In this document: piece by piece, positions 2,349 through 64,000 of the stretch
Position numbering within the stretch: position 1 is the first letter of the stretch
How the letters are laid out: every line of letters starts with the position of its first letter
Assembly (NCBI GenBank): GCA_963422265.1
Contig: OY729416.1
Location: 1,719,596-1,783,595, forward strand
Length of the DNA: 64,000 nt
Direction: 5' to 3'
Source of the DNA: Thermodesulfobacteriota bacterium
GTDB taxonomy: Bacteria; Desulfobacterota_D; UBA1144; Nemesobacterales; UBA2774
Position numbers and translations under genes: made by a program
The notes under the pieces: model-generated
The model's database searches: none
Seen by the model: the letters and a program-made list of their open reading frames with translations, nothing else
What the model was told of the DNA's origin: nothing

Positions 2349-2419
2349 GTAGAATCCTCGGTGTTTTAGTTCAAACGCCTTATCATGCTTAGAGATAACA
2401 ACTCGCAGCGTCTTGAACG

Positions 2420-3410: not shown

Positions 3411-3480
3411 TAGGAGGACGGCGTCTGATAACGTAAATTGTAGTTAAGACAATTTATTAAGGTTATAATTCCCTACTAGG

Positions 3481-4773: not shown

Positions 4774-4783
4774 GGCGTTTCTA

Positions 4784-5155
4784 CTAAGGCGTGGAGAAAG
4801 GGGAGAAACTCGCGGTCTTCTCCCGATTTCCCTCTTTATTAACCCCCGGGTCCGCCGACTCTTTCTGAGACTGGGTCGTTTGTTTGAGCTCAGCTTCCAA
4901 TTGCCGTATTCTGTTTTTTAGTGTGGATCTGTTGGAAACCGTTTGGAACACGCCCATAAGTAAAGCCAATAGCCCTCCGATAACAAACGAGCAGACAATA
5001 ATAACTATGTTCGTAGTTAAGTAGGGGCCTATAGAATAAGCCCTAAGGTCAAATCTAAGTTCAAACTTATGGGTGAATACTTCAAGATTCTGAGTGTAAA
5101 GTATGGCGAAAGAGGTTACCAGTAAAATTACTAATAGCGCTTTTACGAATCTCAT
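4784..5155 (-). CDS. LapA-family membrane protein
   Basis: TM-QN-loop-TM-coiled-coil layout; position downstream of rpsA/sppA. Confidence 0.7.
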   Translation of the reverse strand: MRFVKALLVILLVTSFAILYTQNLEVFTHKFELRFDLRAYSIGPYLTTNIVIIVCSFVIGGLLALLMGVFQTVSNRSTLKNRIRQLEAELKQTTQSQKESADPGVNKEGNREKTASFSPFSTP

Positions 5156-5261
5156 CGCTTATCCCCCTTCAGGCGGTTTTTAATCTTTGTCAAGAGTCTA
5201 GTAAATACCCTCTCCCCCTTATATATCCTATTAAACGCAAGCGCCCAAAGCGTTTTCACTC

Positions 5262-6131: not shown

Positions 6132-6137
6132 AACTAA

Positions 6138-7826
6138 CTATTCCGCCTTGTCATTGGTTATTGATTTTAGCCTTTCTCCAAGCACATCACCGAGTTTTAG
6201 GGTATGCTCGTCCGTAGAAGAGACGAATTTAGATATTCTTTCTCTTTCAAGCTGCTCGTCATATTTGCTCTTGCTCAGGTTGACTTGACGCTTTCTTTTA
6301 TCAAAGCCTATGAACTGCGCAGTTATCTCGTCGCCGACGTTAAAGTTTTTAGCTACATCTATCCTCTGTCCTTCCCGAGACAACTCGCTTTGGTGTATGT
6401 AGCCTTCTACTTTATTTTCGAGCTCAACTACTAAACCTCTATCTTTAACGTCCTTGATCTTTCCGGTAACTACGGTTCTTCCGGGCTTATATCTATCCTG
6501 AGCGTCTTTCCATGGATCCTTTGTGAGTTGTTTGACCCCAAGCCCCACTCTCTCTTTTTCCACTTCTATGTTTAATACGACCACTTCAATCTCATCACCT
6601 ATTTTGAATAGCCCTTCGGGGTTGACCCTCTCTCCCCACGAGACATTATCGGGTCTCAACAAGCCTACGACGTCTTCGGCGACCTCGACAAATACTCCTA
6701 TATCCGTTACGTTCCTGATCTTGCCCTTTACCCTTGAACCGGGCGGATTGTCTTCTTTGAAAACCTGCCATGGGCTAGGCATGATCCTTCTTAGGCTTAG
6801 AGACATTTTTCTGCTTTCATAGTCAACGGTTAGCACTATAGCGTCCAGAACGTTTCCGATTTCAACGGCGTCCTTAGGATGACGGAGCTTTTTTGTCCAG
6901 GCGATTTCAGAGATATGAATTAATCCTTCTATGCCGGGTTCAAGCTCGACGAAGACCCCGAAATTCATTATTGACACCGCTTTTGCCTTGACCCTGGTTC
7001 CCGTCTTGTATTTTTCCTTGGCTGATTTCCATGGGTCGGGAAGCATTTTTTTAAGACTGAGCGTGATCTTTTCCTCACCTTCTATCTTAAGAACGCTTAC
7101 GTTTATTTCATCGTCTATGGATATGACTTGGCTTGGATGTTTGATCCTCCCCCAGCAAAGCTCACTTATGGGAACGAAGCCCTCAATGCCCCCTATATCG
7201 ACAAAAACGCCTTGATTGATAATGTTCACTACCTTTCCTGATATTACCTTTTCCTCTTCAATAGTGGAAAGGGTTTCCTTTTTTAGCTTATTGCGCTCCT
7301 CCTCAAGATAGACCCTGCGTGAAAGGACAATATCATCACCCACGAGCTTTATTATCCTCGCCTCCAGGATTTGCCCAACAAATCTGTCCAGATTCTTTTG
7401 CGGTCTCACGTCCAATTGTGATCCGGGAACAAAGGCTTTGATCTCTGTTTCGTTGCCAACGTCGGCGATAAGTCCACCTTTTACCTGCCTGATTACCTTA
7501 GCCTTTATCAGTTCGCCTTTCTCAAAGGCATTGCGAATTACTTCGTTTTCCCTGATCAACCGCGCCTTAGTCTTAGAGAGCCTAGGGGGTCCATCGCTTA
7601 CCCACCTGTCCAATACTACCTCAACCTCCTCTCCTACTTTTACGTCTAGCCCTCCGCTTGTATCGTAGAACTCGCTCTTGGGTACTACCCCTTCTGATTT
7701 TGATCCAAAGTCTATAAATACGTCGTCCCGATCAATCCCGACGACAACACCCTTAAATACATTTTCTCTGTCCGGAGGCTTCATGCTCTCATCTACTAAC
7801 TCCGCAAAATCTCTCTCTTCTTCCAT
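6138..7826 (-). CDS. rpsA: 30S ribosomal protein S1
   Basis: Six S1 repeats; directly downstream of cmk. Confidence 0.95.
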   Translation of the reverse strand: MEEERDFAELVDESMKPPDRENVFKGVVVGIDRDDVFIDFGSKSEGVVPKSEFYDTSGGLDVKVGEEVEVVLDRWVSDGPPRLSKTKARLIRENEVIRNAFEKGELIKAKVIRQVKGGLIADVGNETEIKAFVPGSQLDVRPQKNLDRFVGQILEARIIKLVGDDIVLSRRVYLEEERNKLKKETLSTIEEEKVISGKVVNIINQGVFVDIGGIEGFVPISELCWGRIKHPSQVISIDDEINVSVLKIEGEEKITLSLKKMLPDPWKSAKEKYKTGTRVKAKAVSIMNFGVFVELEPGIEGLIHISEIAWTKKLRHPKDAVEIGNVLDAIVLTVDYESRKMSLSLRRIMPSPWQVFKEDNPPGSRVKGKIRNVTDIGVFVEVAEDVVGLLRPDNVSWGERVNPEGLFKIGDEIEVVVLNIEVEKERVGLGVKQLTKDPWKDAQDRYKPGRTVVTGKIKDVKDRGLVVELENKVEGYIHQSELSREGQRIDVAKNFNVGDEITAQFIGFDKRKRQVNLSKSKYDEQLERERISKFVSSTDEHTLKLGDVLGERLKSITNDKAE

Positions 7827-12069: not shown

Positions 12070-12370
12070 GGAAGGGGTTACGTTCCCTGCTGTCTATCAA
12101 ATCCCCCTATATCCCCCTTTTCTAAAGGGGGGAATATGTGAGGAAGGGGTTACGTTCCCTGCTGTCTATCAAATCCCCCTATATCCCCCTTTTCTAAAGG
12201 GGGAGTGTATGAGGAATGTTTTCGTTCCTCGATGTCTATCGAATCCCCCTGTATCCCCCTTTTCTAAAGGGGGAGTATATGAGGAATGTTTTCGCTCCTC
12301 GACCCTCTTACTGTATGCCCGCTCGGGGACAGGAGTGACGGTGGGAGGGTATTACGGGGAGGAGTGAACA
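12025..12370 (+). repeat. Three ~70-bp hairpin units plus flanking modules
   Basis: Three copies of CTATC(A/G)AATCCCCCT.TATCCCCCTTTTCTAAAGGGGG. Confidence 0.9.
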
Positions 12371-12448
12371 ACGGTGGGTGTATATCTACCTGACGTATTC
12401 TCTAACGTAGCCTTGCACCCATGCTAAAATCGTCTATCCTTTTAGGCT

Positions 12449-13414
12449 ATGTATGACGCGCGGACGACGAGGGAAACTAAAAAGGAACCTAGAAGGAAAC
12501 CTGATTGGATTAAGGCTCAAATTCCATCGGGTCCTAACTACAAGCGTCTAAAAAATCTGACGAGAGCTCTCGGTCTCCACACGGTTTGTGAAGAGGCTAA
12601 GTGTCCCAATATAGGCGAGTGTTGGGGGGCGGGCACGCTGACGTTTATGATACTAGGTGATACCTGCACTAGAAGCTGCGGATTTTGTCACATTAAAACG
12701 GGTAGGGGGGGCGAGATTGACTGGGATGAGCCGTTAAGGGTTGCCCAAGCCGTTAGCAAGCTGGCTGAGTGTAACGCTAGCGTGAGCCACGTTGTAATAA
12801 CGTCCGTGAATAGAGATGATAGGAACTACGAGAGCGCGTGCGTTTTTGCTGAAACGATAAGAAAGGTAAGGGAATATAACCGCGATGTGAGGATTGAGGT
12901 TTTGATCCCCGATTTCAAGGGGGATGCAAAAGCCCTTAAGCAAATTGTGAACGCAGCCCCCGACGTTTTGAACCACAACGTGGAAACGGTGCCGAGATTA
13001 TACCGTCTTCCGCAGGAGGCGACTTCGGGTAAAATCCGCTCTGTGCGCCCGCAGGCGAGGTATGAATGGTCGCTGTCGGTTCTTGAGTGTAGCAAGAAGC
13101 TAGGCGGTAGTAATATGCTCACAAAATCAGGAATTATGGTTGGACTCGGAGAGGAGATAGAAGAGGTGATGGAAACACTTAAAGACATGCGCGACGCGGG
13201 CTGCGACATTGTAACGATAGGGCAGTATCTTCAGCCAACAAAGGATCACATTCCCGTTTCAAAATACTATCACCCTATGGAGTTTGATTCGCTCAGGACT
13301 TATGCGGAGGGCATTCTTGGGTTGCCTCACGTAGAGGCTGGACCACTCGTTCGAAGCTCTTACCATGCCCATAGGCAGGTAGTTAAGCTGGGGCAGGGCG
13401 CAGTGGCGTCTTGA
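12449..13414 (+). CDS. lipA: Lipoyl synthase
   Basis: CEEAKCPNIGEC and CTRSCGFC motifs, NHNVETV, RSSY. Confidence 0.98.
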   Translation: MYDARTTRETKKEPRRKPDWIKAQIPSGPNYKRLKNLTRALGLHTVCEEAKCPNIGECWGAGTLTFMILGDTCTRSCGFCHIKTGRGGEIDWDEPLRVAQAVSKLAECNASVSHVVITSVNRDDRNYESACVFAETIRKVREYNRDVRIEVLIPDFKGDAKALKQIVNAAPDVLNHNVETVPRLYRLPQEATSGKIRSVRPQARYEWSLSVLECSKKLGGSNMLTKSGIMVGLGEEIEEVMETLKDMRDAGCDIVTIGQYLQPTKDHIPVSKYYHPMEFDSLRTYAEGILGLPHVEAGPLVRSSYHAHRQVVKLGQGAVAS

Positions 13415-13474
13415 TTTTGGGCTTGGGCATGACTGTAGTTATTTAAGCGCTTTAGATGATCCCTGGCTTTCCGC

Positions 13475-13503
13475 TTGACAACCCCTTTAGCCTCACACAT
13501 ACT
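13475..13503 (+). promoter_or_regulatory. Putative sigma70 promoter for nuoN
   Basis: TTGACA-17 nt-CATACT. Confidence 0.55.
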
Positions 13504-13559
13504 AGGCTGCGCAAAAGGGTGACTACAAGGGTTGCCCATAAGACCTGAGGCGTCATCCT

Positions 13560-15020
13560 ATGGATCTAAGCCAGCTTTTAAGAAGCACTCTTCTCATAGC
13601 CCCTGAGATAACCGTTATTTTTACAGGCGTTTTGTTGATAGCGATTTGTCCGATAGCAAAGGGATTGCTAAATAAAAGCCTTTTCTGGCTCGCATTAGTT
13701 GGATTATCAGTTGGATTTTGCCTTAACATTAGCAGGTTTGGTGGCGTAGAAGTCGCCTTTGGTGGGGCGCTTTCTCTTGATCAGTTCGCCGCCTTTTTTA
13801 ACTCTATCTTCCTATTTGCCGCAGCGCTTACCATAGTTTTTTCAAGGGATTATCTGTCTAATGCTGGGCGCCCAAACGAGTTTTACGCTTTAATATTGTT
13901 TTCCACTTCGGGGATGATGATATTAGCCTCTGCCAAAGAGTTCATGTCTCTGTTCATGGGTTTTGAGATCATGTCTATCTCAGTTTATATATTATCGGCT
14001 TTTAACAGAAGATCGGTGAGATCCACCGAGTCTGGCGTCAAGTATCTTATACTAGGTGGATTTTCATCCGCCATTCTTCTTTACGGAATAGCTCTTCTCT
14101 ATGGGGCTTCTGGCTCCGTGTATTTAGACCATATATTCAAAGGCTTTGACTTGAGCAATCCTCTATACCTTGCCGGTGGGGCGCTTGTGCTCATTGGTTT
14201 GATCTTTAAGATCGGGGCGTTTCCCCTTCACCAATGGGTGCCAGACGTCTATGAAGGAGCGCCTATGACCGTAGCTGGTTTTATGTCCGTCGGGGTAAAA
14301 GCCGCAGCCTTCGCAGTCTTGCTCAGGGTTGTCTTCGAAGGTTTAGGTCAGATGCAGGCTGACATTACGCCGGTTCTTTGGATAATCGCCGTATTTACAA
14401 TGACGGTTGGGAACTTAGCGGCGATTGCCCAAAGCAGCGTGAAGCGTATGCTTGCCTACTCGAGCATAGCTCACGCGGGTTACGCTCTTGTGGGGGTCGT
14501 GGCGGCAGCGAACGGCGGGAACGCTCTCGCCGTTGGGGGTGTTCTATACTATTTATTTGCTTATGCCTTTATGAACTTAGGAGCTTTTGGCATATTGAGC
14601 TATCTTTCAAAAGACGGCAAGGAGAGCGAGAGCTTTGAAGATATAGCTGGTATTTGGAGGCGAAGGCCTTACGTAGCCCTTGCTCTAGGCGTGTTTATAT
14701 TTTCGCTTGCGGGGATTCCTCCCACAATTGGATTTTTCGCCAAATATAGGGTTTTTCTTTCCGCCGTCCAGTCGGATTTCTACTGGCTAGCGGTAATTGG
14801 TGCGCTGAACAGCGTCGTGTCGGTTTATTACTATTTGAAGGTTCTAGTCTATGCCTATATGAAGGAAGACAAAGCTGCTTTTCCCTCCTTCAGGCTGGGT
14901 TCATCAGCCGCTTTGACGATTCTTGTTTTTGGCTCTCTTTTTCTTGGGGTGTTTTCATTTGCTTCCTGGGATATGGCGATAAGGGCTGCGGGGAGCATCC
15001 TTGTAGCCATCGGCGGGTAA
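13560..15020 (+). CDS. nuoN: NADH-quinone oxidoreductase subunit N
   Basis: Multi-TM; E...KY.ILG, FKIGAFPLHQWVPDVYEGAP, KRMLAYSSIAHAGY, SLAGIPPT.GF..K. Confidence 0.95.
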   Translation: MDLSQLLRSTLLIAPEITVIFTGVLLIAICPIAKGLLNKSLFWLALVGLSVGFCLNISRFGGVEVAFGGALSLDQFAAFFNSIFLFAAALTIVFSRDYLSNAGRPNEFYALILFSTSGMMILASAKEFMSLFMGFEIMSISVYILSAFNRRSVRSTESGVKYLILGGFSSAILLYGIALLYGASGSVYLDHIFKGFDLSNPLYLAGGALVLIGLIFKIGAFPLHQWVPDVYEGAPMTVAGFMSVGVKAAAFAVLLRVVFEGLGQMQADITPVLWIIAVFTMTVGNLAAIAQSSVKRMLAYSSIAHAGYALVGVVAAANGGNALAVGGVLYYLFAYAFMNLGAFGILSYLSKDGKESESFEDIAGIWRRRPYVALALGVFIFSLAGIPPTIGFFAKYRVFLSAVQSDFYWLAVIGALNSVVSVYYYLKVLVYAYMKEDKAAFPSFRLGSSAALTILVFGSLFLGVFSFASWDMAIRAAGSILVAIGG

Positions 15021-15047
15021 ATAATAAATTTGTAAGGTGGGGAGAAA

Positions 15048-15398
15048 ATGACTGAATTGGATGACTCGCAATTAAGCGAAAAAGCTGAAGAGGTCTTTAA
15101 TAATGTTGTTGCGCCCGCGTTTCGTAATTTGTTAAACGATTATAACGGAGGGGGTTACGGCGTTAAGCTTGTTCCCGATAGCCCCTTGATAACTGGAATT
15201 GATAAATACGCCTCTATAATGATAAGGCATCCGAACGGTGTTGAAATGGTGATCTGCGTTTACTGGATTGCGGGAAGCGACAAGCTTGCGGCGGAGAATA
15301 TGCGCATGGTTACGCTTCGCAAGACCTTTGATCTGTTCACCGTTACGAAGGATGAGCTTGAGGGGCAGGTTAAGTTTTTAGGTGGTATGCGGCGCTAG
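15048..15398 (+). CDS. Hypothetical protein
   Basis: 116-aa ORF with GGAG RBS, co-oriented after nuoN. Confidence 0.7.
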   Translation: MTELDDSQLSEKAEEVFNNVVAPAFRNLLNDYNGGGYGVKLVPDSPLITGIDKYASIMIRHPNGVEMVICVYWIAGSDKLAAENMRMVTLRKTFDLFTVTKDELEGQVKFLGGMRR

Positions 15399-15659
15399 GG
15401 AGGATTTCTTATTTGTGTGTGGGCGATTTGAGCGACATTCTGAGTTTACTGAAGGGCGCATAACCGAATTGCGCGCCGGGGGTTAGGGAACGAGAATATT
15501 GCCTTATCCTCCCCTATCCCCTCTGGATTCTTGCTTTCGCTTTATCCTTCTAAACCCGTTATATCAGCATTGCTGTAGCTATTTATAAGGTAACTTGCTT
15601 GTTTATATTATTCGTGTAAAAATTGATTATATAGCAAGTATATTAAGGAGATAACAATT

Positions 15660-50726: not shown

Positions 50727-51884
50727 TTATAATGACACTTTGGGGTGGATTATTTTAATTAAATCTACGGCTTTATCTATTTCTTCGGTGGTGTTTTCAA
50801 CGGAAAAGCTAAACCTCACGCTTGAGTAAGCCTCTTCTTTGGAGAGACCCATGGCGCAAAGCACGTAGGACGGGGCTGTTTCAAAATTAGTGCAGGCTGA
50901 GCTTTGAGAGCATCTAACACCTGCCTGATCTAGCTCTGCAACTAGCTTTTTTCCATCTACTCCGCTAAATGATAAGTTAGTCGTGTTGCATACCCTGCGT
51001 TTGACGTCTCCGTTTACCTTGGCGCCGGGGATGGAGTCTAGCACCATCGCCTCGAATCTATCGCGAAGGCTCTTCATCAGGGAAATGAATTCGGCTAGTC
51101 GGTTGTTCCTTATCTCAGCGGCTTTTCCCATACCAGCTACGCCGGGAACGTTTTCGGTGCCCGGGCGAAACCCTTCTTCCTGAAACCCGCCGAACATAAT
51201 CGGCGTTAGCAAGAACCTCTCCTTAGAGTAAATAGCGCCTACGCCCTGGGGCGAGTGAAACTTGTGCCCTGTTAGGGATAAAAAATCAATAGGAGCGTCT
51301 TGGACATTCATATCTATCTTGCCGACTGCCTGAGCCGCGTCCGTATGCAGGACGACACCCCTTGAGCGACATATACACCCTATCTCGTCTATAGGCTGGA
51401 CTATGCCGGTCTCGTTATTTACCCAACCGACGGAAACAAGGTCTGTATTCTCGTTTATCTCTTTTTCAAGACTCTCAATATCCAAACGACCCTTTGAATC
51501 GACGCCAATCGTCTTAACTTGCACCCCGTTTAGGCTTAGGTAGCTACACATTTTTTGTATTGAGGAATGCTCAACGGTCGTAGTGATGATCTTGACGTCC
51601 TTAGCACCTGACGTCCGTAAACGCCCGCCGCATGCGGAGTAAAAAGCCATGTTGTTGGATTCGGTTCCTGAGCTAGTAAAGGTTATTTTGTCAGGTGGGA
51701 CGCCCAAGAGGCTCGCTAGGCGTCTCCTTGCATTTTCAAGGGTCAGGCGACCGCGCGCTCCCGCTCTGTGCGCGCTTGAAGGATTGCCAAACTCCTCTCT
51801 CATCGTCCTTAGCGCCTCTTCTTTCACCTCTGGCAGCGCTGTGGTCGTTGCGTTGTTGTCAAAGTATATTTCTTTGTCATTCAT
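50727..51884 (-). CDS. Cysteine desulfurase (IscS/NifS type)
   Basis: YFDNNATT, GNPSS.H, HTDAAQ, GHKFH (PLP lysine), R.GTEN, SSAC. Confidence 0.93.
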   Translation of the reverse strand: MNDKEIYFDNNATTTALPEVKEEALRTMREEFGNPSSAHRAGARGRLTLENARRRLASLLGVPPDKITFTSSGTESNNMAFYSACGGRLRTSGAKDVKIITTTVEHSSIQKMCSYLSLNGVQVKTIGVDSKGRLDIESLEKEINENTDLVSVGWVNNETGIVQPIDEIGCICRSRGVVLHTDAAQAVGKIDMNVQDAPIDFLSLTGHKFHSPQGVGAIYSKERFLLTPIMFGGFQEEGFRPGTENVPGVAGMGKAAEIRNNRLAEFISLMKSLRDRFEAMVLDSIPGAKVNGDVKRRVCNTTNLSFSGVDGKKLVAELDQAGVRCSQSSACTNFETAPSYVLCAMGLSKEEAYSSVRFSFSVENTTEEIDKAVDLIKIIHPKVSL

Positions 51885-52360: not shown

Positions 52361-53116
52361 CTACTTACGCTTGCCGAATATCCAGGCGATGCGACCTATT
52401 ATTTTTAATTCGTGTTCAATTATGTCGCGTCCCAATATCTTATCCTCAGTCATAGGGCTGTCTGATTTAATTAAAATCCCGTCGGGGTGGTCTTCTAGCC
52501 TCTTGACGCTGAAGCCCTCGTAGGTTCTATAAATCAGATACAGCTCGTTATCCACAAAGTCAACATCGTTAAAATCGACGCCTACGTAGTCGCCGTCGTC
52601 CAGAGTCGGATACATAGAATGCCCCCTTAGCTGAAAAGCATCTCGATACCCGCCTACTAGCTCCGCTGGGAACGTCTTGATCTCAAGTGGCTTATAGGAT
52701 GGCATTTGCTCTTGGATGAAGAATGCGTTACCCAAACCTGCGTGGTCGTGCACTTTAACTTCGACTCCTTTCGCCTCTTCACCGCCCCTGTCTGCCAGTA
52801 TCTTTCTGGCGCGCCCCAATTTGCTCTTGGAGATTCTACCGCTATCTATCTCTTCCTGTCGTCCTTTGCCTTCCTGTTGTTCCTCCCTTAGGAATATCTC
52901 GCCTTCGCCGTAACGCAGCCACCTGGGATTTACAGCGAACTCACTCTCAATCTTTTCCAGCGTCTTATTATAAGGCTGGGTTATACCAGTCTCCCAATTG
53001 TAAATAGTGGTCAAAGAGCTACTGCCTACCCCCTCTGAAAACTGCTCCTGCGTAAGGTTAAGTTCTTCCCTTAATTGCTTCAACCTTATATGTAAATGTT
53101 CATACTTGATAGCCAT
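52361..53116 (-). CDS. CI-like phage repressor (XRE HTH plus S24 peptidase)
   Basis: RLKQLREELNLTQEQF...WETG...VNPRWL..GEG; GHSMYPTL.DGD (Ser), VKRL (Lys), AG cleavage-site motif in HAGLG. Confidence 0.9.
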   Translation of the reverse strand: MAIKYEHLHIRLKQLREELNLTQEQFSEGVGSSSLTTIYNWETGITQPYNKTLEKIESEFAVNPRWLRYGEGEIFLREEQQEGKGRQEEIDSGRISKSKLGRARKILADRGGEEAKGVEVKVHDHAGLGNAFFIQEQMPSYKPLEIKTFPAELVGGYRDAFQLRGHSMYPTLDDGDYVGVDFNDVDFVDNELYLIYRTYEGFSVKRLEDHPDGILIKSDSPMTEDKILGRDIIEHELKIIGRIAWIFGKRK

Positions 53117-53131
53117 TATCCTGTAAAAATA

Positions 53132-53182
53132 TTCAATCTTGGCTACAAACTCCTTGACAACCTTCAATCTTGAGGATATGAT
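53132..53182 (+). promoter_or_regulatory. Divergent phage-type promoter with two operator-like boxes
   Basis: TTGACA(53154)-17 nt-TATGAT(53177); TTCAATCTTG at 53132 and 53163, the second in the spacer and forming TCAA-N2-TTGA. Confidence 0.75.
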
Positions 53183-53269
53183 TGCTTATGTGGGAATAGC
53201 TGCGACGTCCGATACCCATACTAGTAATGAAGATATTAGATTTATTGGCAATTTGCAAGGGATACGGCG

Positions 53270-54150
53270 TCCGTCATTCCTGCGGAAGTAGGAATTTAGG
53301 GGTAAGGGAATGTCTGAACTGTGATTTTTAGGATTAAACGATGAACTTATGATTGAAAGGATAAAGAACAAATCATCCTTAGTCTAAAAGGGGAAAAGTA
53401 GGGGTAACCCTTTAAGGTGCAAGGGAGATGGGTAACCACAAGGATTACCCCTACGAAAAGTAAGGGATTTGTCGGTTGCGTTTTGCCCTTCGGCAGGTTC
53501 AGGGGTTAGGCAAAGGATATTCCCCTCCTTTTGTAAAGGAGGGTTAGGGTGGATTTTTTTTTGTTTGTAGGGGGTAGTGCTAGCGATGTCCTGAACTTGT
53601 TGATGTGGGGAGATAAGGGATGGTTGATCTTCCCTGATATTCTATCAAATCCCCCTGTATCCCCCTTTGTCTAAAGGGGGAGAAGGAGAAATTTCCCTCC
53701 TTTTGTAAAGGAGAGTTAGGGTGGATTTTTTTTTGTTTGTAGGGGCGGTGCTAGCGATGTCCTGAACTTGTTGAAGGGGGGGGGATAAGGGAGAGTTGAT
53801 CTTCCCTGATATTCTATCAAATCCCCCTGTATCCCCCTTTGTCTAAAGGGGGAGAAGGAGAAATTTCCCTCCTTTCATAAAGGAGGGTTAGGGTGGATTT
53901 TTTTTGTTTGTAGGGGTAGTGCTAGCGATGTCCTGAACTTGTTGAAGGGGGGGGATAAGGGAGGGGTTGATCTTCCCTGATGTTCTATCAAATCCCCCTG
54001 TATCCCCCCCTTTACTAAAGGGGGAATGTGTGCGGAAGGGATCACGTTTCCCTACTCCCTGGTTGGTGAGCCTGCCGAGGAGAACTTGTTGAAGGGTGGT
54101 CGCCCAAAGGTATGAAGGCAATGGGTAACCACAAGGATTATCCCTACGAA
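53270..54150 (+). repeat. Repeat cluster between repressor and replication gene
   Basis: About three ~175-180 bp units plus flanking modules. Confidence 0.9.
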
Positions 54151-54170
54151 ATAATAAAAGGAGAAAAAAC

Positions 54171-55343
54171 ATGAGATATCAAAAGATAGAATCGCACATC
54201 TGGTTTGACGAGAAGTTTACGGGCTTGAGCCATTCAGCGCAGCTCCTGTTTCTTTACGTATTAACCTCGCCTCACGGTAACCTGGCAGGCATATACGTCC
54301 TCAAAAAGGGCTATGCGTGCGACGATATGAAGACCTTGCCCGAAGACTTTGAGAAGGACTTGGAAGAATTATCGTCAAAGGAGCTGATTCGCTATGACAA
54401 AGCGACGCAAGTGATATGGATAAAGAATTTTCTCAAGCACAATCCCCTTGAGAATAGGAATCAAAAAATATCAGCGATACGCCGCATAAGTTCTTTGCCA
54501 AAGAGCAATCTGTTAGAGGAATTTCTACACTGCAATAAAGAATATTTTGAGGGTTTCTCTGATCCCATCTTAAATACTGAGGAGGAGTCTTGCGATTGTC
54601 AATCTAAAGGGAAGCATGGAGATAGTGATGTGGACGGTGTTTCTACGGGTTCATCAAACCCTTTACCAAACCCTTCCAAAAGGGTTACTAAGGGGTTTGC
54701 CAAACCAGGAACAGGAACAAGAACAGGAACAGACACAGACACAGACAATCAACTCACCCTTAACAAGACCCGTAGCCTAGAAACTACCAGGGGAGCTTTG
54801 TCCAAAACCGCGAAAAATGGGGTAAGTGGAGAAAGAAAAGATTTTTCTCGTAATGGAAAACATGTCTCTGCGGGTATTAAGCAGGAGATTGACTCAGAGT
54901 CCGTTGCCAGCACCTCTTCTAAGTGGGGAAAGGAAGTCTTCCAATCGTTTAGAAACGCTATTTACCGTAGAAGACTCTTTGAGCTTTACGATAACCTCAA
55001 AGAGATTAAGTCTATAAAAGACCTTGTAGAAGAAGGTGCGTATAGGGCTTTGAAGGACGTAGCGGTAAACAGGACGACGGAACTAGAACGACGGGGATTA
55101 AGTTTTGGGCCAGTGACTCTAACGGTGATGTCTAAAAGAATCAAAAGAGAGTTCGCATACGACAACGTGCCGAGTGATGAGGAGAAGGCAAGGAACTTTT
55201 ACGTTCGTGAGCTGTGCGATTTGACGGCGGAGAGTGTTTTTCAGTGGCCCCGCACCGCGCCACTTACAGGCAGAATTCGCATCTCTGCCACCGATGCCCA
55301 ACCTGGAGATGTGTATCGTCCACCCCCCGCTTTAAGGGGGTAA
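54171..55343 (+). CDS. Phage-type replication initiator (replisome-organiser-like)
   Basis: IW.DEKF..LS....LLFLY.LT.PH.N..G.Y winged-helix N-terminus; I..F.KHN; GTGTRTGTDTDTD linker; AAGGAG RBS. Confidence 0.75.
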   Translation: MRYQKIESHIWFDEKFTGLSHSAQLLFLYVLTSPHGNLAGIYVLKKGYACDDMKTLPEDFEKDLEELSSKELIRYDKATQVIWIKNFLKHNPLENRNQKISAIRRISSLPKSNLLEEFLHCNKEYFEGFSDPILNTEEESCDCQSKGKHGDSDVDGVSTGSSNPLPNPSKRVTKGFAKPGTGTRTGTDTDTDNQLTLNKTRSLETTRGALSKTAKNGVSGERKDFSRNGKHVSAGIKQEIDSESVASTSSKWGKEVFQSFRNAIYRRRLFELYDNLKEIKSIKDLVEEGAYRALKDVAVNRTTELERRGLSFGPVTLTVMSKRIKREFAYDNVPSDEEKARNFYVRELCDLTAESVFQWPRTAPLTGRIRISATDAQPGDVYRPPPALRG

Positions 55344-55581
55344 GGAAGGGGTGAGCGTTCCCCGCTTCCCATTCTGGATTCTTGCTTGCGCAGGAATGAC
55401 GAGAGGGACCCTCTCCCTGGTTCGGCGGCTCGGCGCACCTGTTGAAGGATGGTCGCCCTGAGGTGCAAGGGAGATGGGTAAGATGGGTAATCACAAGATT
55501 TATCCCTACGAAAAGATAGAAAAGGAGGGAATGACGAGGAGTAGGAGACCATAAGGTCGCCACGAAAAAGGAGGAGATAAA

Positions 55582-56157
55582 ATGACAATAAACGCACAGC
55601 AAAGACAAAGAATATATCGCTGTATAGAAGAAGCACTGCCTTTCTATCATCGTTGGAAACGTGCTCGGCGTATAGCATCTACAAGGGCGACAAAACAAGC
55701 GGCTTCCCACTATTCGTCATCAGGGCGAGCTATGCGCCTTGGGCAGTTACCCGCCGCCTCTTTGGCAGACGAACGAGCAGAGCCGCCTGCTCGTAACGTG
55801 TATCTGCAAGTGCTCGAGCCAGTGATTGAGGGATACCTATATGGCAGATGGGGAGTGGAACAGGACGTAATAGATCTATGGCTGGATGGATTGGATGATT
55901 TGCGGATTCTAAAGTTTTGCAAGACGTTGGACCCTAATCTAACGCTAAAAGACGTCCGCGTATGGATTTACGGAGACGGCGAGCAATACGGTTTGTTAAA
56001 CACCATGTGCGAGGCGTTTATGGCGGATGCGGATTTTTGCCCGTTTTGTATGGACCAGAAAGGACGCGGAGATAGATCCGTTAAGCCCAAGCTCTACGGC
56101 ACGACGTGCCCGCACGCCGAGTTGTGGGAGCATCAGAGGTTACAGGAGAGTGCATGA
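55582..56157 (+). CDS. Phage-associated hypothetical protein, possibly Zn-binding
   Basis: AGGAGG RBS; CPFC...CPH; stop overlaps the terminase start (ATGA). Confidence 0.75.
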   Translation: MTINAQQRQRIYRCIEEALPFYHRWKRARRIASTRATKQAASHYSSSGRAMRLGQLPAASLADERAEPPARNVYLQVLEPVIEGYLYGRWGVEQDVIDLWLDGLDDLRILKFCKTLDPNLTLKDVRVWIYGDGEQYGLLNTMCEAFMADADFCPFCMDQKGRGDRSVKPKLYGTTCPHAELWEHQRLQESA

Positions 56158-56954
56158 ACGGGAATCTGAAAACTGTCTCGCCCGTCCGCCCATCCCTTTC
56201 GCCGTTTACCCTTACCGAGTGCTTTATGGAAGCTGTTTGGAAGGACGAGCAGGGCGAGCGGATAACTTGTGCCCCTCATCAGCTTGAGTGGCATAGATTT
56301 ATAAGGGAGCAGAGGGAGAATGGGCGTAAACGTATAGGGATACTTGCTCCATTTAAGCACGGTAAGACGCCCCATATACTGGGCATAACTTTGGCTGGGC
56401 TCTCCGCCAATCCCGAAAAGCGGATCAAAATCGTATGTAATGATGACAACAACGCCATGAAGCGCGTCACCGTGTTAAAGCGATACATTGAGCAGGACGA
56501 AGACTACGGGGCGTTGTTTGCAGATAGGATAAAACCTGATAAATCAGCTAGATGGAACGCCCATGCCATAACTGTAAAGAGAAAGTCTCAGAGCGTAGAA
56601 GGTTCCATAGAGTCGGCGGGCGTCCTCTCAACGGGGATTGGCGGGACTTATGACCAGATGATCTTTGACGACCCATGCGATCTGAACAACTCTACTTTGA
56701 GCGCAGTTAAAAGGGATCACCTAAAAGAACTTGCGAGAAACGTGTGGCTGTCTCGATTGGACAGAGACGGGGAGGTCCTTTACATCGCCACCGCATGGCA
56801 CGCCGAGGATCTGACGCACGAGCTAATTGACAACCCTGAATGGACGTGGCTCATCCAAAGAATTGCCAATGATTTTAGCTCAATTGAGCAGGTGGAGATA
56901 AGAGGCGATATTCGCATAGGGAAGGGAAATATCAATGACCATAATACAGGATAA
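56154..56954 (+). CDS. Terminase large subunit, ATPase domain only
   Basis: PHQ (Q motif), APFKHGKT (Walker A), MIFDDP (Walker B), IATAWH coupling motif. Confidence 0.85.
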   Translation: MNGNLKTVSPVRPSLSPFTLTECFMEAVWKDEQGERITCAPHQLEWHRFIREQRENGRKRIGILAPFKHGKTPHILGITLAGLSANPEKRIKIVCNDDNNAMKRVTVLKRYIEQDEDYGALFADRIKPDKSARWNAHAITVKRKSQSVEGSIESAGVLSTGIGGTYDQMIFDDPCDLNNSTLSAVKRDHLKELARNVWLSRLDRDGEVLYIATAWHAEDLTHELIDNPEWTWLIQRIANDFSSIEQVEIRGDIRIGKGNINDHNTG

Positions 56955-57732
56955 ATTCAGGCAGCTTGAGGTTAAACGCATTCCCTTGTGGGATAGATGG
57001 GGAGAGCGGGAATTGCGCTCTCGCAGAAACGAAATAGGTTCCAAAGCCTTTAACAGAGGCTATCGACACGAGGCTATAGAGCGGGACGAGCTGACGTTTT
57101 CTCACTTCACTAGAATAAAGAAATATGGTGTGGGTCCCGAGATCATCAGCCCTAGCTGGGAACGTTACGCGGGTGTTGACGTATCCTCGTCCTCTCGTCC
57201 GGGAAGCGTAATTTTTACGGGGGCGGTGAGTCCAGGGGGAAAGCGATACCCAAAGGAAATCAGGATTGGCGCATGGACGGCTCCCGAATTCGTTAGGCAA
57301 ATACTCGATTGCTACAATCGCTATCGTCACCAGGTGATATTGGTAGAGAATAACGGCGTGCAGACCATGCTAGTTGATTGGCTCAATGAGAAGGGGGCTC
57401 ATCTGCCAATAGAAGGATACGTTACGGGGGTGCAAAAGATGGATCCCGAGATCGGTCTGCCCTCGCTGGACATAGAGTTTGAGAATGAAAGCTGGGTGCT
57501 CCCGATGGACGTTGTAAAGGGACACGAGGGTAATTGCGGACGGTATTCGCTAGCCGGTGGGGCAATGTGTTCATGGTGTAGGTTTATCAAGGAGTTCGAG
57601 GCGCATCCACAGTATCCGACTACTGACGTCGTCATGGCGACTTGGCTATTCCGCGAGGCGGTCAGGAAATATAGGGGTGCGGGGTTTATCATGGAACAGA
57701 GCCCGATAGAAGAAGGAGTGTTCGAATTTTAG
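56935..57732 (+). CDS. Terminase large subunit, nuclease (RNase H-like) domain
   Basis: PLW.RW...L...IG...F...Y, AGVD.S, ILVENNG.Q, TDVVMA. Confidence 0.8.
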   Translation: MTIIQDKFRQLEVKRIPLWDRWGERELRSRRNEIGSKAFNRGYRHEAIERDELTFSHFTRIKKYGVGPEIISPSWERYAGVDVSSSSRPGSVIFTGAVSPGGKRYPKEIRIGAWTAPEFVRQILDCYNRYRHQVILVENNGVQTMLVDWLNEKGAHLPIEGYVTGVQKMDPEIGLPSLDIEFENESWVLPMDVVKGHEGNCGRYSLAGGAMCSWCRFIKEFEAHPQYPTTDVVMATWLFREAVRKYRGAGFIMEQSPIEEGVFEF

Positions 57733-59840
57733 GGAAGGGATCACGTTTCCCAATGCCTATCAAATCCCCCTATATCCCCCTTTGTCTAAAGGGGGAGAAG
57801 AAGAAATTCCCCTCCTTTTGTAAAGGAGGGAAAGGGTGGATTTTGTTTTTGTTAGTAGGGGTGGTGCTAGCGATATCCTGAACTTGTTGGAGGGGGGAGA
57901 TAAGGGATGATTGATCTTCCCCGATGTTCTATCAAATCCCCCTTTGTCTAAAGGGGGAGTGTATGAGGAATGTTTTCGTTCCTAGATGTTCTATCAAATC
58001 CCCCTGTGTCCCTCTTCGTCTAAAGGGGGAGTATGTAAGGAAGGGGTTCGTTCCCTGATGCCCCGTCAAATCCCCCTGTATCCCCCTTTGTCTAAAGGGG
58101 GAGTATGTAAGGAATGTTTTCGTTCCTAGATGTTCTATCAAATCCCCCTGTATCCCCCTTTGTCTAAAGGGGGAGTATGTAAGGAAGGGATTATGTTCCC
58201 CGATGCCCCGTCAAATCCCCCTGTATCCCCCTTTGTCTAAAGGGGGAGTATGTAAGGAAGGGATTACGTTCCCCGATGTTCTATCAAATCCCCCTAAATC
58301 CCCCTTTTCTAAAGGGGGAGAAGAAGAAATTCCCCTCCTTTTGTAAAGGAGGGAAAGGGTGGATTTTCTTTTTGTTAGTAGGGGTGGTGCTAGTGATGTC
58401 CTGAACTTGTTGGAGGGGGGGATAAGGGAGGGTTGATCTTCCCTGATATTCTATCAAATCCCCCTGTATCCCCCTTTGTCTAAAGGGGGAGTATGTAAGG
58501 AAGGGGTTCGTTCCCCGATGCCCCGTCAAATCCCCCTATATCCCCCTTTTCTAAAGGGGGAGCATATGAGGAATGTTTTCGTTCCTAGATGTTCTATCAA
58601 ATCCCCCTGTCTCCCCCTTTTCTAAAGGGGGAGTATGTAAGGAAGGGGTTCGTTCCCTGATGCCCCGTCAAATCCCCCTATATCCCCCTTTTCTAAAGGG
58701 GGAGTGTATGAGGAATGTTTTCGTTCCTAGATGTTCTATCAAATCCCCCTGTATCCCCCTTTTCTAAAGGGGGAGAAGAAGAAATTCCCTTCCTTTTGTA
58801 AAGGAGGGAAAGGGTGGATTTTGTTTTTGTTAGTAGGGGTGGTGCTAGTGATGTCCTGAACTTGTTGATGTGGGGAGATAAGGGATGATTGATCTTCCCT
58901 GATATTCTATCAAATCCCCCTGTATCCCCCTTTTCTAAAGGGGGAGAAGAAGAAATTCCCTTCCTTTTGTAAAGGAGGGAAAGGGTGGATTTTGTTTTTG
59001 TTAGTAGGGGTGGTGCTAGTGATGTCCTGAACTTGTTGATGTGGGGAGATAAGGGATGATTGATCTTCCCTGATATTCTATCAAATCCCCCTGTATCCCC
59101 CTTTTCTAAAGGGGGAGCATATGAGGAATGTTTTCGTTCCTAGATGTTCTATCAAATCCCCCTGTATCCCCCTTTGTCTAAAGGGGGAGTATGTAAGGAA
59201 GGGGTTCGTTCCCTGATGCCCCGTCAAATCCCCCTATATCCCCCTTTTCTAAAGGGGGAGTGTATGAGGAATGTTTTCGTTCCTAGATGTTCTATCAAAT
59301 CCCCCTATATCCCCCTTTTCTAAAGGGGGAGTATGTAAGGAAGGGGTTCGTTCCCTGATGCCCCGTCAAATCCCCCTATATCCCCCTTTTCTAAAGGGGG
59401 AGCATATGAGGAATGCGTTCGTTCCTAGATGTTCTATCAAATCCCCCTGTATCCCCCTTTTCTAAAGGGGGAGAAGAAGAAATTCCCCTCCTTTTGTAAA
59501 GGAGGGATAGGGTGGATTTTGTTTTTGTTAGTAGGGGTGGTGCTAGCGATGTCCTGAACTTGTTGGAGGGGGGAGATAAGGGATGATTGATCTTCCCCGA
59601 TGTTCTAACAAATCCCCCTGTATTCCCCTTTGTCTAAAGGGGGAGCATATGAGGAATGTTTTCGTTCCTAGATGTTCTATCAAATCCCCCTGTATCCCCC
59701 TTTGTCTAAAGGGGGAGTATGTAAGGAAGGGATTATGTTCCTTGTTCCCCTGGTTGGTGGGACTGCCGAGGAGAACTTGTTGAAGGGTGGTCGCCCAAAG
59801 GCGCGGAGGCAATGGGTAACCACAAGGGTTACCCCTACGA
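57733..59840 (+). repeat. 2.1-kb higher-order repeat array between terminase and tRNA
   Basis: Roughly 20 CCCCCTTT(T/G)TCTAAAGGGGG hairpins; two ~71-bp unit types, mostly alternating, interspersed with ~170-bp units. Confidence 0.93.
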
Positions 59841-59849
59841 AACGCGTAG

Positions 59850-59925
59850 TGGTGGAGCCGAAGGGATTCGAACCCTCGACCTCATGAATGCCATTCATGC
59901 GCTCTCCCAACTGAGCTACGGCCCC
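59850..59925 (-). tRNA. tRNA-Ala (GGC)
   Basis: Minus strand GGGGCCGTAGCTCAGTTGGGAGAGCGCATGAATGGCATTCATGAGGTCGAGGGTTCGAATCCCTTCGGCTCCACCA; 76 nt, encoded CCA. Confidence 0.97.
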
Positions 59926-60187: not shown

Positions 60188-61586
60188 GTGAAATCGAATG
60201 CGAACCTAATCAAAATTGGGTTGATAGGAGCTGGCACCGTAGGATGCGGCGTGATAAAGCTCCTTAGCCGAAATAAGGGCATTATTGAAAAGAGGACCGG
60301 AGTCCGACTCGATCTAAAGAGAATTGCCGATAATGACCTTGAGAGAAAAAGACCTGTAAGGCTTCCTAAAGACAGGATTACTACCGATGCGTTTGAGGTT
60401 ATTCGTGATGAATCAATAGACATAGTGGTAGAGCTTGTAGGGGGGACGACCGTAGCAAGGGATTTCGTCATGGCAGCCATAGATAACGGTAAGCACGTCG
60501 TAACGGCGAATAAAGCCCTTATCGCCCACCATGGCAGAGAAATATTCCAGAGCGCCTTGCAAAAAGGAGTTAGCGTTGGCTTTGAAGCCAGCGTAGGGGG
60601 TGGAATTCCGATAATACGCGCGATGAGGGATGGATACGTCGGAAATAAAGTGCTGTCTATCCATGGAATAATGAATGGCACTTCTAACTACGTATTATCC
60701 AGAATGACTGAGCGGATGGCTTCCGCAAACGCACAAAGCAGGGCACGGGCATCGTCTCGGATTACGCGAGGAGGAGAAAAGTCGGAATTTGAAGAGGTCT
60801 TAAAAGAGGCGCAGCGCAAGGGATACGCCGAAGCCGATCCTTCGTTTGATATCGACGGCGTTGACTCGGCTCATAAACTCTCGATAATGATAATGCTTTC
60901 GTTTGGCGTCTTTCTAGCGTTTGAAGATATTCACGTAGAGGGAATACGTGGGATTACGCCGCTGGACGTTGCGTTTGCCGATGAGCTTGGCTATAGGATA
61001 AAGCTCTTGGCGACCGCAAAGGCTAAGGATAGCGTTCACCCCACGGACAAAGAGGCTTTTGGATAACGTTCCCGAGAGTATAGAAGCCGGCGTATATCCA
61101 ACGTTAATAAAAAAGGGAACGTCGCTCGCCGATGTTTCAGGAGCCTTCAATGCGATTTACCTAGTTGGGGACGCAATTGGTCCGACAATGCTCTATGGTC
61201 TGGGGGCGGGTATGATGCCGACGGCAAGCGCCGTCGTTAGCGATATATCGCGTATCTCCTCTCTATACGATCCAGCTCCAAGGCTACACGTGGACTTCAC
61301 GTCATCTCCGCTAATTAAAATGAGCGAAACGTCTAACAAATACTACTTAAAATTCAATGCTCACGACCGCCCAGGCGTGTTGGGAAAAATCACAGGCAGG
61401 CTGGGTAGGCATGGGATCAGCATCGAGTCGGTGATACAAAAGGGGAGGCATCCCGAAGGTGGTGAGTCCCAATTGTCATTATGACTCACGAGGCTCAAGA
61501 AAAGAAGCTATTATCTGCTCTCGAGCAGATAGATAAATTCCCGGATGTAAGCGCAAATCAACGTTTATAAGAATCGGGAGATTTAA
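60188..61586 (+). CDS. hom: Homoserine dehydrogenase with ACT domain (apparent frameshifts, likely read errors)
   Basis: GAGTVG, TANKA, FEASVGGGIP, NGTSNY, GYAEADP; continues in the next frame with GAG..PTASAV and DRPGVL. Confidence 0.9.
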
Positions 61587-61591
61587 GGAAC

Positions 61592-63037
61592 TTGAAAAAG
61601 AAGATTTTGGTCGTAGATGATGAAGAGAGCATAAGATGGGTGGTTGGCAAGTGTCTTGAAAAAGCGGGTTATTGGTTGGATACGCGGAGAACGGCTCTCA
61701 AGCTATAGAAAGCGCTACTTCGGGCGACTTTTGTTCAGTAATTCTTGATATAACAATGCCTGACGTAAACGGGCTTGAGGTTATGTCGGAGCTGAAAGCC
61801 CGCGATATAGAGATCCCGATTATTATCATTACGGCGCAGAACACGGTTAAAAACGCCATAGATGCTATGAAGCTGGGCGCATACGATTATGTAGCCAAGC
61901 CTTTTGATCTCAATGAGGTAACTATAACGGTGCAAAGGGCTATTGAGAGTTACGAGAATGCAAAGCGGCTAGACCTTTTAAGATGCTCACACAATAGCGC
62001 TGGGGAGCTGAAGCCACCAACCACTCCGATAGTCTGCATTTTATAGTGGGAAGAACTCAACCCATGCTCAATATCTATAAAATGATAGGGCGGGTGGCGG
62101 AAAGAGATATAACGGTGTTGATAACGGGAGAGAGCGGCACGGGGAAGGAACTTGTCGCAAGGGCTATACACTCAAACAGCAAGCGGAAAGATAGAAAAAT
62201 CGTAGCGGTTAATATCGCCGCCATTCTAAGGAGCTTCTTGAAAGTGAGTTGTTTGGCTACGAGAAGGGCGCTTTTACGGGTGCTGGCGGGTTAAGAAGGG
62301 GAAGATTTGAGGAAGCGCATAATGGCACGCTTCATCTGGATGAAATAGGCGATATGCCCGCTGACCTTCAAACTAAAATCCTAAGAATTTTAGAGGAAAG
62401 GCAGTTTTACCGTCTCGGTAGTGAGAAACCTACTTCAGTTGACGTCCGTATAATTGCATCAACTAACAAGAATCTCGAACAAGAGGTGAAGAACGGAAAC
62501 TTTAGGGAAGACCTTTACTACAGACTCAACGCCATAACAATAGAAATTCCCCTTTAAGGGAAAGGCTCGAGGACGTTATTCCACTCGCCCTACATTTTTG
62601 GATAAATACTCCAAAGAGTTGGGTATCAGGAAAAGGCTTATGTCTGAGGATGCCCAACGAGCCCTCCTTAGCTACGACTGGTATGGCAACGTCCGGGAGC
62701 TGGAAAACATGATTAAACGCTTGCTCGTTCTGACGTCCGATAGCGTGATTACGAAAGAGACCTTATTAGATATTGCTCCACCCCTTGAGGGAGGAATAAG
62801 AGGCTCATGTGATTCCTTAGATAAGCTCATAACGAATGAGATTAAACTTTTGTTAGATGGATCGGGAGAGGGTAGCTCAGTGAAAGTTTATGAAGAAATG
62901 ATGAGAAAGGTAGAAAAACCCCTTATTAAGTCGGTGCTCGCCGTTACCAAAGGAAATAAGAAAAAGGCGGCTTCTCTTCTGGCATAAACAGAAACACGCT
63001 TTCCAAGAAGATAGAAGAGTTGGGATTAAGAGAATAG
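61592..63037 (+). CDS. NtrC-family sigma54 response regulator (apparent frameshifts, likely read errors)
   Basis: Pieces in successive frames: KILVVDDE, LDITMP, GESGTGKE, GAFTGA, FREDLYYRLN, W.GNVREL, GINRNTL (Fis HTH). Confidence 0.88.
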
Positions 63038-63039
63038 GG

Positions 63040-64000
63040 AAGGGATGTCTGAACTGTGATTTTATGAGCTATGATTAAAAGAATAAAGGACAAATCCCCC
63101 TTGATTCCCCTTTGTCTAAAGGGGGAGAAGAAGAAATTCCCCTCCTTTTGTAAAGGAGGGAAAGGGTGGATTTTCTTGTTTGTAGGGGTGTGTGCTAGGC
63201 GATGTCCTGAACTTGTTGAAGAGGGGGGGATAAGGGATGGTTGATCTTCCCTGATGTTCTATCAAATCCCCCTGTATCCCCCTTTGTCTAAAGGGGGAAT
63301 GTGTGCGGAAGGGTTTACATTCCTCGTTCCCCTGGTTGGTGGGACTGCCGAGGGGAACTTGTTGAAGGGTGGTCGCCCAAAGGTGTGGTGAGATGTGGGT
63401 AACCACAAGGGTTACCCCTACGAAATGATGGTGTGGGTGATGTGGGAGTATAAGGGATGATTGATCTTCCTGATATTCTATCAAATCCCCCTATATCCCC
63501 TTTTCTAAAGGGGGAGTATGTAAGGAAGGGGTTACGTTCCTCGTTCCCCTGGTTGGTGGGACTGCCGAGGGGAACTTGTTGAAGGATGGTCGCCCTAAGG
63601 TGTGGTAATGTGGGTAACCACAAGGGTTACCCCTACGAAATGATGGAGAGGGTGGGAATGACGAGGGTATGTGGGAGTATAAGGATGATTGATCTTCCCT
63701 GATGTTCTATCAAATCCCCCTTTTCTAAAGGGGGAATGTGTGAGGAAGGGTTCACATTCCTCGTTCCCCTGGTTGGTGGGACTGCCGAGGAGAACTTGTT
63801 GAAGGGTGGTTGCCCTAAGGCTTGAATGTGAGGGTAACCACAAGGGTTACCCTACGAAATGATGGAGAGGGTGGAATGACGAGGGGATGTGGGAGATAAG
63901 GGATGATTGATCTTCCCTGATGTTTTATCAAATCCCCCTGTATCCCCTTTTCTAAAGGGGGAATGTGTGAGGAAGGGTTCATGTTCCTTGTTCCCCTGGT
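63040..64000 (+). repeat. Composite repeat cluster running off the window end
   Basis: Several ~230-bp composite units. Confidence 0.9.

Follow-up and report, generated by a model that had tools for sequence, protein, structure and literature searches.

A 64,000-nucleotide (nt) stretch of a Thermodesulfobacteriota bacterium chromosome (contig OY729416.1, positions 1,719,596 to 1,783,595; hereafter the window) carries, inside a prophage remnant, a phage large terminase whose ATPase and nuclease lie in two separate genes. We consider it probable that this is a genuine two-gene enzyme, its chains being translated separately and assembling non-covalently in the phage lineage from which the split was inherited, and that the copy in the window is a relic. 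The two genes and the signal between them are as follows.

56154..56954, + strand: terminase ATPase (motor) gene, 266 residues; match to phrog_38, E = 1e-22
56935..57732, + strand: terminase nuclease (cutter) gene, 265 residues, +1 frame, own ATG; match to phrog_38, E = 1.7e-10
56920..56934, + strand: Shine-Dalgarno (SD)-like purine run preceding the nuclease ATG and lying within the last part of the ATPase gene; duplex of -7.5 kcal/mol with a generic anti-SD sequence, used for all such values here

The ATPase open reading frame (ORF1) is listed from a GTG, as 56106..56954 on the + strand, but the ATG at 56154, which gives 266 residues, is the likely start of the gene because it forms an ATGA overlap with the stop of an upstream 191-residue ORF, because its SD-like duplex is -7.4 kcal/mol versus -1.7 for the GTG, and because the homologues begin there in the alignment. 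ORF1 ends with a TAA at 56952-56954, and the nuclease frame (ORF2) opens upstream of that stop at its own ATG, so that the genes overlap by 20 nt (56935-56954); as 56106 is 0 and 56935 is 1 modulo 3, ORF2 is in the +1 frame. With this stop and this separate ATG at 56935, the locus does not encode the single polypeptide of an ordinary large terminase (TerL). A preliminary description, made from the letters alone, had given the same stop, start and overlap, and the ORF coordinates agree with it. Upstream, the nuclease frame is closed by a TAG at 56917-56919, so that no more than five codons are open ahead of the ATG, and the purine-rich stretch mentioned in that description is found immediately 5' of it as GGGAAGGGAAATATCA. 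Its duplex energy is similar to that of the ATPase ATG and falls in the upper range of the genes of the window; taken alone the run is a weak sign, compatible with a separate translation start rather than evidence for one. Inspection of 56900-56960 showed no homopolymer longer than three letters, as had been stated before.

Both ORFs match the PHROG family phrog_38 (terminase large subunit). Residues 24-234 of ORF1 align to profile positions 276-472 (E = 1e-22) and residues 15-160 of ORF2 to positions 484-638 (E = 1.7e-10); the ORFs are therefore consecutive halves of one terminase profile. Pfam holds no family for either half at E <= 0.1. The break sits immediately ahead of KRIPLWDRW, which is the PLW..RW motif that the preliminary description had placed just after it, and the extra residues it had noticed on both halves amount to a tail of 15 on ORF1 (252-266), absent from all 11 homologues described below, and to 14 on ORF2 ahead of its profile match. 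The ORF1 tail is a lineage-specific extension running into the nuclease gene. In the simplest account, an ancestral stop after ...EI(E/R)(N/G) was lost and the frame now crosses the old spacer into ORF2.

Conservation of the split and predicted fit of the chains

Searched at near length, ORF1 had 11 homologues besides the window's own protein (12 in all), of 146-286 residues and at 51-70% identity. All 11 ATPase homologues end within one alignment column of each other, at ...DFSxIEQIxIEN. The corresponding search with ORF2 returned five proteins, its own included. Among them, P0164 and P0165 (259 residues each, 62% and 61% identity to ORF2) and P0166 (283 residues, 51%) are nuclease-only, and P0167, of 358 residues, is a fragment whose stretch from the end of an ATPase domain marks it as the product of a fused gene. 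P0164, P0165 and P0166, together with P0013, begin at the same aligned methionine as ORF2; M1 is invariant in the nuclease alignment, and the N-terminal residues M[ST]II[QT]DKF are common to P0164, P0165 and ORF2. The longest contig listed is 1953 nt for both the ATPase P0012 and the nuclease P0164, and 2457 nt for both P0004 and P0165; from these equal figures, the members of each pair probably lie side by side on one contig. Only three longer homologues of ORF1 were found by the search made for them, namely P0014 (537 residues, 57% identity), P0168 (551 residues, 55%) and P0169 (33%). Relatives above 60% identity, four ATPase and two nuclease proteins, are all split, and the tier at 51-57% is mixed. 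The nearest relatives (61-70%) are thus divided at the same point as the window, the pattern that the preliminary description had proposed to look for.

The locus presents an ATPase-only gene followed by a nuclease-only gene, both with a start and a stop of their own and both conserved in relatives. Homologues at 51-70% identity keep both the ATPase stop and the nuclease start. These two boundaries are conserved, and the split was most probably inherited from the phage lineage and did not arise in this genome.

The two halves also retain the folds and the catalytic residues of a large terminase. A profile of the ATPase alignment matched the solved TerL of PhiV-1 (8dgc_E, 4.6e-6) and the T7 maturase B (4bij_A, 7.5e-6). 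In that alignment G70, K71 and T72 are nearly invariant and D172 and D173 are invariant, and we read GKT 70-72 and DD 172-173 as the putative Walker A and acidic Walker B motifs, so that the N-terminal half has the P-loop and the acidic Walker B of an additional strand, catalytic glutamate (ASCE) ATPase. The profile of the nuclease alignment matched no solved structure by sequence. The AlphaFold2 model of ORF2 (predicted local distance difference test, pLDDT, 86.2) gave 47 Foldseek matches at E <= 0.001 with terminase nucleases leading, the best being PhiV-1 8dgc_E (6.6e-8), followed by the terminase nucleases of G20c, D6E, P74-26, RB49, T4, SPP1, human cytomegalovirus and P22. Across 44 nuclease-only sequences D82, E138 and D231 do not vary, as expected of a C-terminal RNase H/RuvC-like nuclease with conserved acidic residues.

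Modelled as a complex, ORF1 and ORF2 scored 0.80 against 0.37 for the best control, on a rough scale on which 116 of 157 solved complexes and 2 of 215 mismatched pairs attain the mark, the alignments being self-supplied. The runs agree in at least 92% of contacts, with a partner pLDDT of at least 76. The interface joins residues 213-249 of chain 1 with residues 2-28 and 41-50 of chain 2, and the confident contacts are between ATPase residues 243-248 (IEQVEI) and nuclease residues 11-18; the ATPase tail, 250-266, is not among the named interface residues. The model suggests that the halves fit together like the domains of a fused enzyme, which is a likeness and not binding, and it is in this form that the heterodimer prediction suggested in the preliminary description came out. 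In the model of the fused P0014 (pLDDT 86.3), the point corresponding to the break comes after the strand 246-253, in the blocks 251-270 (pLDDT 67), the two inter-domain blocks of lowest confidence; the split therefore cuts a linker and not a folded element.

From these elements we propose the following course of events. The ATPase chain would be translated from 56154 to 56954, and the nuclease chain separately from the ATG at 56935, probably coupled to termination upstream. In the phage lineage, the two chains may have assembled non-covalently through the segments flanking the break, the ATPase contributing its last strand (IEQVEI) and the nuclease its N-terminal helix and KRIPLW segment. The two-gene arrangement would have come from the phage ancestor, and a repeat family, by invading the prophage, would have cost the remnant its portal and head genes.

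The prophage remnant and a possible second role

The window is bacterial chromosome, with host genes that include parAB and an intact dcw cluster (mraZ to ftsZ), and only about 5.4 kb of it (about 52361-57732) is a phage-derived island holding a repressor, a replication initiator, a 191-residue protein and the two terminase genes. The features in and around the island are these:

50727-51884: class-V aminotransferase (Pfam), a host-type gene, next to the left of the repressor
52361..53167, - strand: CI/LexA-like repressor at the left island end; Pfam HTH_3 (8.4e-12) and Peptidase_S24 (2.8e-10); phrog_4, transcriptional repressor (5.4e-34)
54171..55343, + strand: DnaD-like helicase loader or replication initiator; phrog_1701 (1.3e-24), phrog_25711 (6.9e-25)
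55582..56157, + strand: 191-residue protein in the small-terminase position; its stop overlaps the ATPase start (ATGA)
57750..59560, no strand: repeat-family arrays with units of 71, 72, 142 and 171 nt, in place of whatever followed the terminase
59850..59925, - strand: tRNA-Ala(GGC), found by ARAGORN

A strong SD sequence, AAAGGAGGAG (-11.8 kcal/mol), precedes the gene for the 191-residue protein. By its position this protein may be the small terminase; it has no Pfam or PHROG match, and tblastn found no counterpart in the related loci. The nuclease stop is followed by repeat arrays, within 57936-59473, and then by the tRNA-Ala gene and host genes; the tRNA gene is a possible former attachment site of the prophage. 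At 57753 the contig depth, summed for the public sequencing run X1, jumps from about 36 to about 3100. The 38-nt core of the repeat has 16 matches in the window where none is expected, two of them inside the island (53645 and 53817).

The repeat core contains the inverted motif CCCCCTTT..AAAGGGGG, and its tandem units of 71, 72, 142, 171 and 220 nt belong to a genome-wide family, possibly MITE- or REP-like. It occurs again at 63230-64000, and single copies lie at 16341, 23106, 23251, 53645, 53817 and 63090.

Family searches of the window proteins yielded no portal or capsid gene, so that the packaging module adjoins no portal here, unlike that of the related locus L030 described below. The only portal-like match in the genome is a 94-residue fragment some 365 kb away, which lies beside a MuF-like minor head protein (phrog_220, 8.6e-91), a Neck1 fragment and the same repeat. 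Our reading is that invasion by the repeats has broken up a prophage here, whose truncated state the preliminary description had not noticed. Most likely the terminase pair is, in this cell, a still-intact relic and not a working packaging motor, its genes uninterrupted but left with no capsid to fill.

Next to that portal, MuF-like and Neck1 debris we observed a CRISPR-like array, at 12101-15602 of the fetched segment L114 (about 1,404,100-1,407,600 on the genome contig), with a repeat of about 30 nt, CTTCTTTGACTACCTATAAGGGATTGAAAC, and units of 65-67 nt.

An island with a repressor, a replication initiator and terminase genes still intact, and without a single structural gene, might serve another purpose: the genes would no longer be a terminase and would be kept by the host, or by a satellite-like element, for instance to hijack the capsids of helper phages or as decoys for terminase-sensing immunity. 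The strain polymorphisms of ORF1, which lean to the synonymous side, fit such a role as well. We regard it as very unlikely. A search of 40 related genomes with ORF1 gave no close match, the only other match being at 24% in a 506-residue frame, and the pair is therefore not a conserved host gene; moreover, no integrase was found in the island, and the two repeat copies inside it look like decay.

The junction as mutation or as programmed frameshift

We asked whether the split had resulted from a recent frameshift mutation or an assembly error in a once-fused gene, which would make the pair a pseudogene. The search of public runs gave eight holders of the locus in five studies, with no RNA run listed among them, and the Logan contigs of X1, X4, X6 and X7, four runs each from a different study, were aligned to 56100-57800. 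The contigs of X1, possibly the genome's source sample and hence not independent, are identical to the window over 56100-57782. Those of X4 differ by 9 letters over 56100-57098, those of X6 by 13 letters over 56100-57778, and those of X7, at low depth, by 3 letters over 56653-57040; X4 and X6 represent slightly different strains with the same two-ORF structure. All four runs bridge 56900-56960 with no gap, and their contigs have no inserted or deleted letter in 56100-57750, the sole one listed being at 57784, in the repeat beyond the terminase genes. Because contigs from four studies bridge the junction in this way, it is not an assembly error, which answers the check on reads across 56900-56960 that the preliminary description had called for. 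Inside both genes there are 19 positions with single-nucleotide polymorphisms (SNPs) in total; those of ORF1 comprise 8 synonymous and 4 non-synonymous changes. These small numbers suggest constraint on ORF1 and say little about ORF2.

The prophage has decayed, relatives at 55-57% identity are fused, and frame-broken genes do occur in the same window, all of which would agree with a pseudogene. A homoserine dehydrogenase (hom) lies in two overlapping ORFs in different frames (overlap at 61059-61066), broken at or near a TTTT run, and an NtrC-type response regulator (61672-62987) is in at least four ORF pieces, being either a pseudogene or a run of frame errors:

60188-61066: hom piece 1, NAD_binding_3 and Homoserine_dh positions 1-124
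61059-61484: hom piece 2, Homoserine_dh positions 117-172 and ACT
61672-62046: NtrC-like receiver domain
62046-62294 and 62249-62557: NtrC-like AAA+ pieces
62598-62987: NtrC-like lid and Fis-type helix-turn-helix

However, the four contig sets, with up to 13 letters different from the window, show no indel, the break matches the conserved stop and start of split homologues (61-70% identity) that are closer than the fused ones, and both ORFs are otherwise uninterrupted and keep the invariant catalytic residues. A broken gene is thus a very unlikely source of the pair.

A programmed +1 ribosomal frameshift within 56920-56954 would instead yield a full-length fused terminase, beside the two chains or in place of them. 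The frames do overlap by 20 nt, reading through would produce a linker similar in length to that of the fused P0014 (27 residues), and the related locus L030 would likewise need a +1 shift. Programmed frameshifting is marked by a slippery site and a stimulator in a conserved overlap and by the lack of a separate downstream start, and the locus does not fit this description. No known +1 motif was seen in the 35 nt of 56920-56954. In the prfB model of frameshifting, by which we judged re-pairing at the stop, GGA-TAA-A would call for re-pairing of the glycine tRNA on GAU. The overlap is not conserved, as the 11 homologous ATPase genes stop 15 codons earlier, while the nuclease methionine and the residues after it are conserved as an N-terminus. 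At L110, another related locus, two whole genes stand between the halves and make fusion by frameshifting impossible there, and at L030 the nuclease frame is closed by a stop four codons before its GTG. We hold such a frameshift to be very unlikely. The preliminary description had offered a split terminase and a programmed frameshift as alternatives; the first agrees with the conserved stop and start and the intact reads, and the second has neither a +1 motif nor a conserved overlap behind it. An intron or intein was rejected, as the halves overlap by 20 nt and nothing intervenes, and so was an alternative genetic code, the stop being TAA and the ordinary genes of the window reading normally under table 11.

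Several points nevertheless count against a genuine, inherited two-gene terminase. P0014 and P0168, at 55-57% identity, are fused, and the small clade of the window could accordingly descend from a fused ancestor. The comparison with the closest split relatives (62-70% identity) was one of proteins, in which junction, frame and spacer do not show. The broken hom and NtrC-like genes show that frame breaks occur in this genome. The strain SNPs of ORF2, 3 synonymous and 4 non-synonymous, are compatible with relaxed selection, and run X7, at a depth below 7, supplies three of the 20 SNPs, which may be errors. As many as 9% of the windows within both genes score as low as the SD-like run, and the score of the complex may reflect the predictor's memory of solved one-chain terminases such as 8dgc.

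Two-gene terminases in the wider family and in known phages

An exhaustive search with ORF2 gave 1027 representatives at E <= 0.001, the best 150 of which were classified. Within these best 150, 79 are fused and 58 are nuclease-only with a methionine start and a domain beginning within 45 residues; a further 8 are nuclease-only without that methionine (partial genes or GTG/TTG starts), and 5 have other N-termini. We also classified 108 related loci for which DNA was available. One long frame is present in 85; in 18 the ATPase frame ends no more than 30 residues from the domain end; and in 5 the contig ends too early to tell. The earlier statement that TerL is normally one polypeptide accordingly holds for 85 of the 103 classifiable loci, although two-gene terminases already stand in print as a matter of annotation, for Arthrobacter cluster AY phages (PMC11920828).

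Five of the 18 loci with a closed ATPase frame have a nuclease-like ORF nearby (L030, L110, L018, L020 and L045); the other 13 gave no ORF2-like match inside the fetched flank. The order at L030 is an ATPase gene (5917-6765), a nuclease gene in the +1 frame (6767-7624) and a portal gene (phrog_113, 2.3e-61). L110 has four coupled genes in the order ATPase, 94 residues, 76 residues and nuclease, with strong SD sequences and ATGA overlaps. At L018 (1650-2465) and L020 a free-standing HNH homing-endonuclease gene (phrog_314, 1.9e-24) lies exactly between the ATPase and nuclease ORFs, and insertion of such a gene is a plausible route by which terminase splits arise.

Some further observations were made at these loci. 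The two small coupled ORFs of L110 occupy 5493-6004 of a 43-kb viral contig and had no family match. At L045 (an 82-kb viral contig), the usual order is reversed, with the nuclease-like match (4278-4889) upstream of the ATPase gene (6001-6703). The ATPase is broken near the P-loop as well at L013, L014 and L015, where the upstream ORF ends ...GILAPWGSG and the next ORF is in another frame. The viral contigs L034, L035 and L041 (54-82 kb) hold ATPase-only ORFs with no ORF2-like nuclease within about 6 kb downstream, and their nuclease may be elsewhere or too divergent to detect. Scanning of viral contigs gave no match with ORF2 alone and only L110 with the nuclease alignment profile. Of two scans of genome contigs, the first gave no match and the second only L115, the contig of the fused P0014; there (1953-7062) the fused gene stands between the large subunit of ribonucleotide reductase and a clamp-like DNA polymerase processivity factor, with no adjoining portal. 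A scan of metagenomes gave, for the relatives at 50-55% identity, only the truncated contigs L002 and L003.

Two trees bear on the history of the split. The FastTree tree comprised 131 nuclease domains, 76 from fused and 55 from split terminases; it omitted 22 of the 150 representatives (13 neither fused nor methionine-started nuclease-only, 9 with incomplete domain coverage) and took in the window's ORF2, P0164, P0165 and P0166 as well. It needs at least 24 changes of state, against an average of 42 with shuffled labels, and its starred branches alone force 6. The IQ-TREE tree was built from 19 hand-picked ATPase rows and rooted on a single outgroup, P0169. It leaves the fused L005, L006 and L016 outside a clade of 15 rows (support 100/98), 13 of them split (the window, P0002-P0011, L030 and L110); the fused pair P0014 and P0168 is nested within as a clade of its own (100/100), for two changes in total. 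Under this root, the arrangement would most simply reflect a single old split and a single later re-fusion; both the sampling and the root are weak points. A family-wide split that is frequent and old, with possible re-fusion, is of more interest than the window's copy in itself.

One may go further and suppose that the split is the ancestral working state of this T7-type clade (the window, L030, L110 and at least 10 metagenomic relatives), with the chains held together by strand and helix complementation, P0014 and P0168 being secondary re-fusions, the uncoupling of motor and cutter being adaptive, and the 15-residue tail of the window being a snapshot of the first step towards re-fusion. We put this forward tentatively, as the less probable course. 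If it were true, uncoupling motor and cutter might set their ratio or alter recognition by terminase-sensing Avs immunity.

In models of the T4, P74-26 and HK97 terminases, the ATPase and the nuclease are assumed to communicate through a covalent hinge. For T4, one study describes an interdomain link that relays conformational signals (PMC3074133). Natural two-chain terminases would imply that some lineages can do without the covalent hinge, and, being ready to hand, they lend themselves to tests of how packaging and cutting are linked. Our literature search, with subscription journals mostly outside it, found no biochemical or experimental study of a natural two-chain terminase; what it gave on split terminases by that name was limited to intron, intein or unrelated cases. 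The window's copy hints at a dynamic of splitting and re-fusing; lying in a dead prophage, it is ill suited to experiments. Phages of the two-gene type will be mis-scored wherever an annotation pipeline or a phylogeny counts on one TerL marker.

Compared with the T7-type one-chain TerL (phrog_38; T7 gp19, 'DNA maturase B', 4bij; PhiV-1, 8dgc chain E), the window has the same domain order and folds, but in two polypeptides in place of one. Among deposited phages, the best tblastn match of ORF1 is at 26.6% identity, in Vibrio phage XM1, and ORF2 has none. Terminase coding sequences also lie in pieces where group I introns cut them (PMC12880540) or where they carry inteins (PMC7156551); splicing restores one chain there, whereas the halves in the window overlap and leave nothing to splice. 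Another parallel is the two-gene large terminase of Arthrobacter cluster AY phages, which is reported to have the same architecture as the window, in cultured and viable phages (PMC11920828). No Arthrobacter phage was among the tblastn matches of either half, and with no detectable sequence relation to cluster AY the window is therefore an independent case in another terminase lineage. The two-gene terminase is already known in print, and the window adds a further lineage to it.

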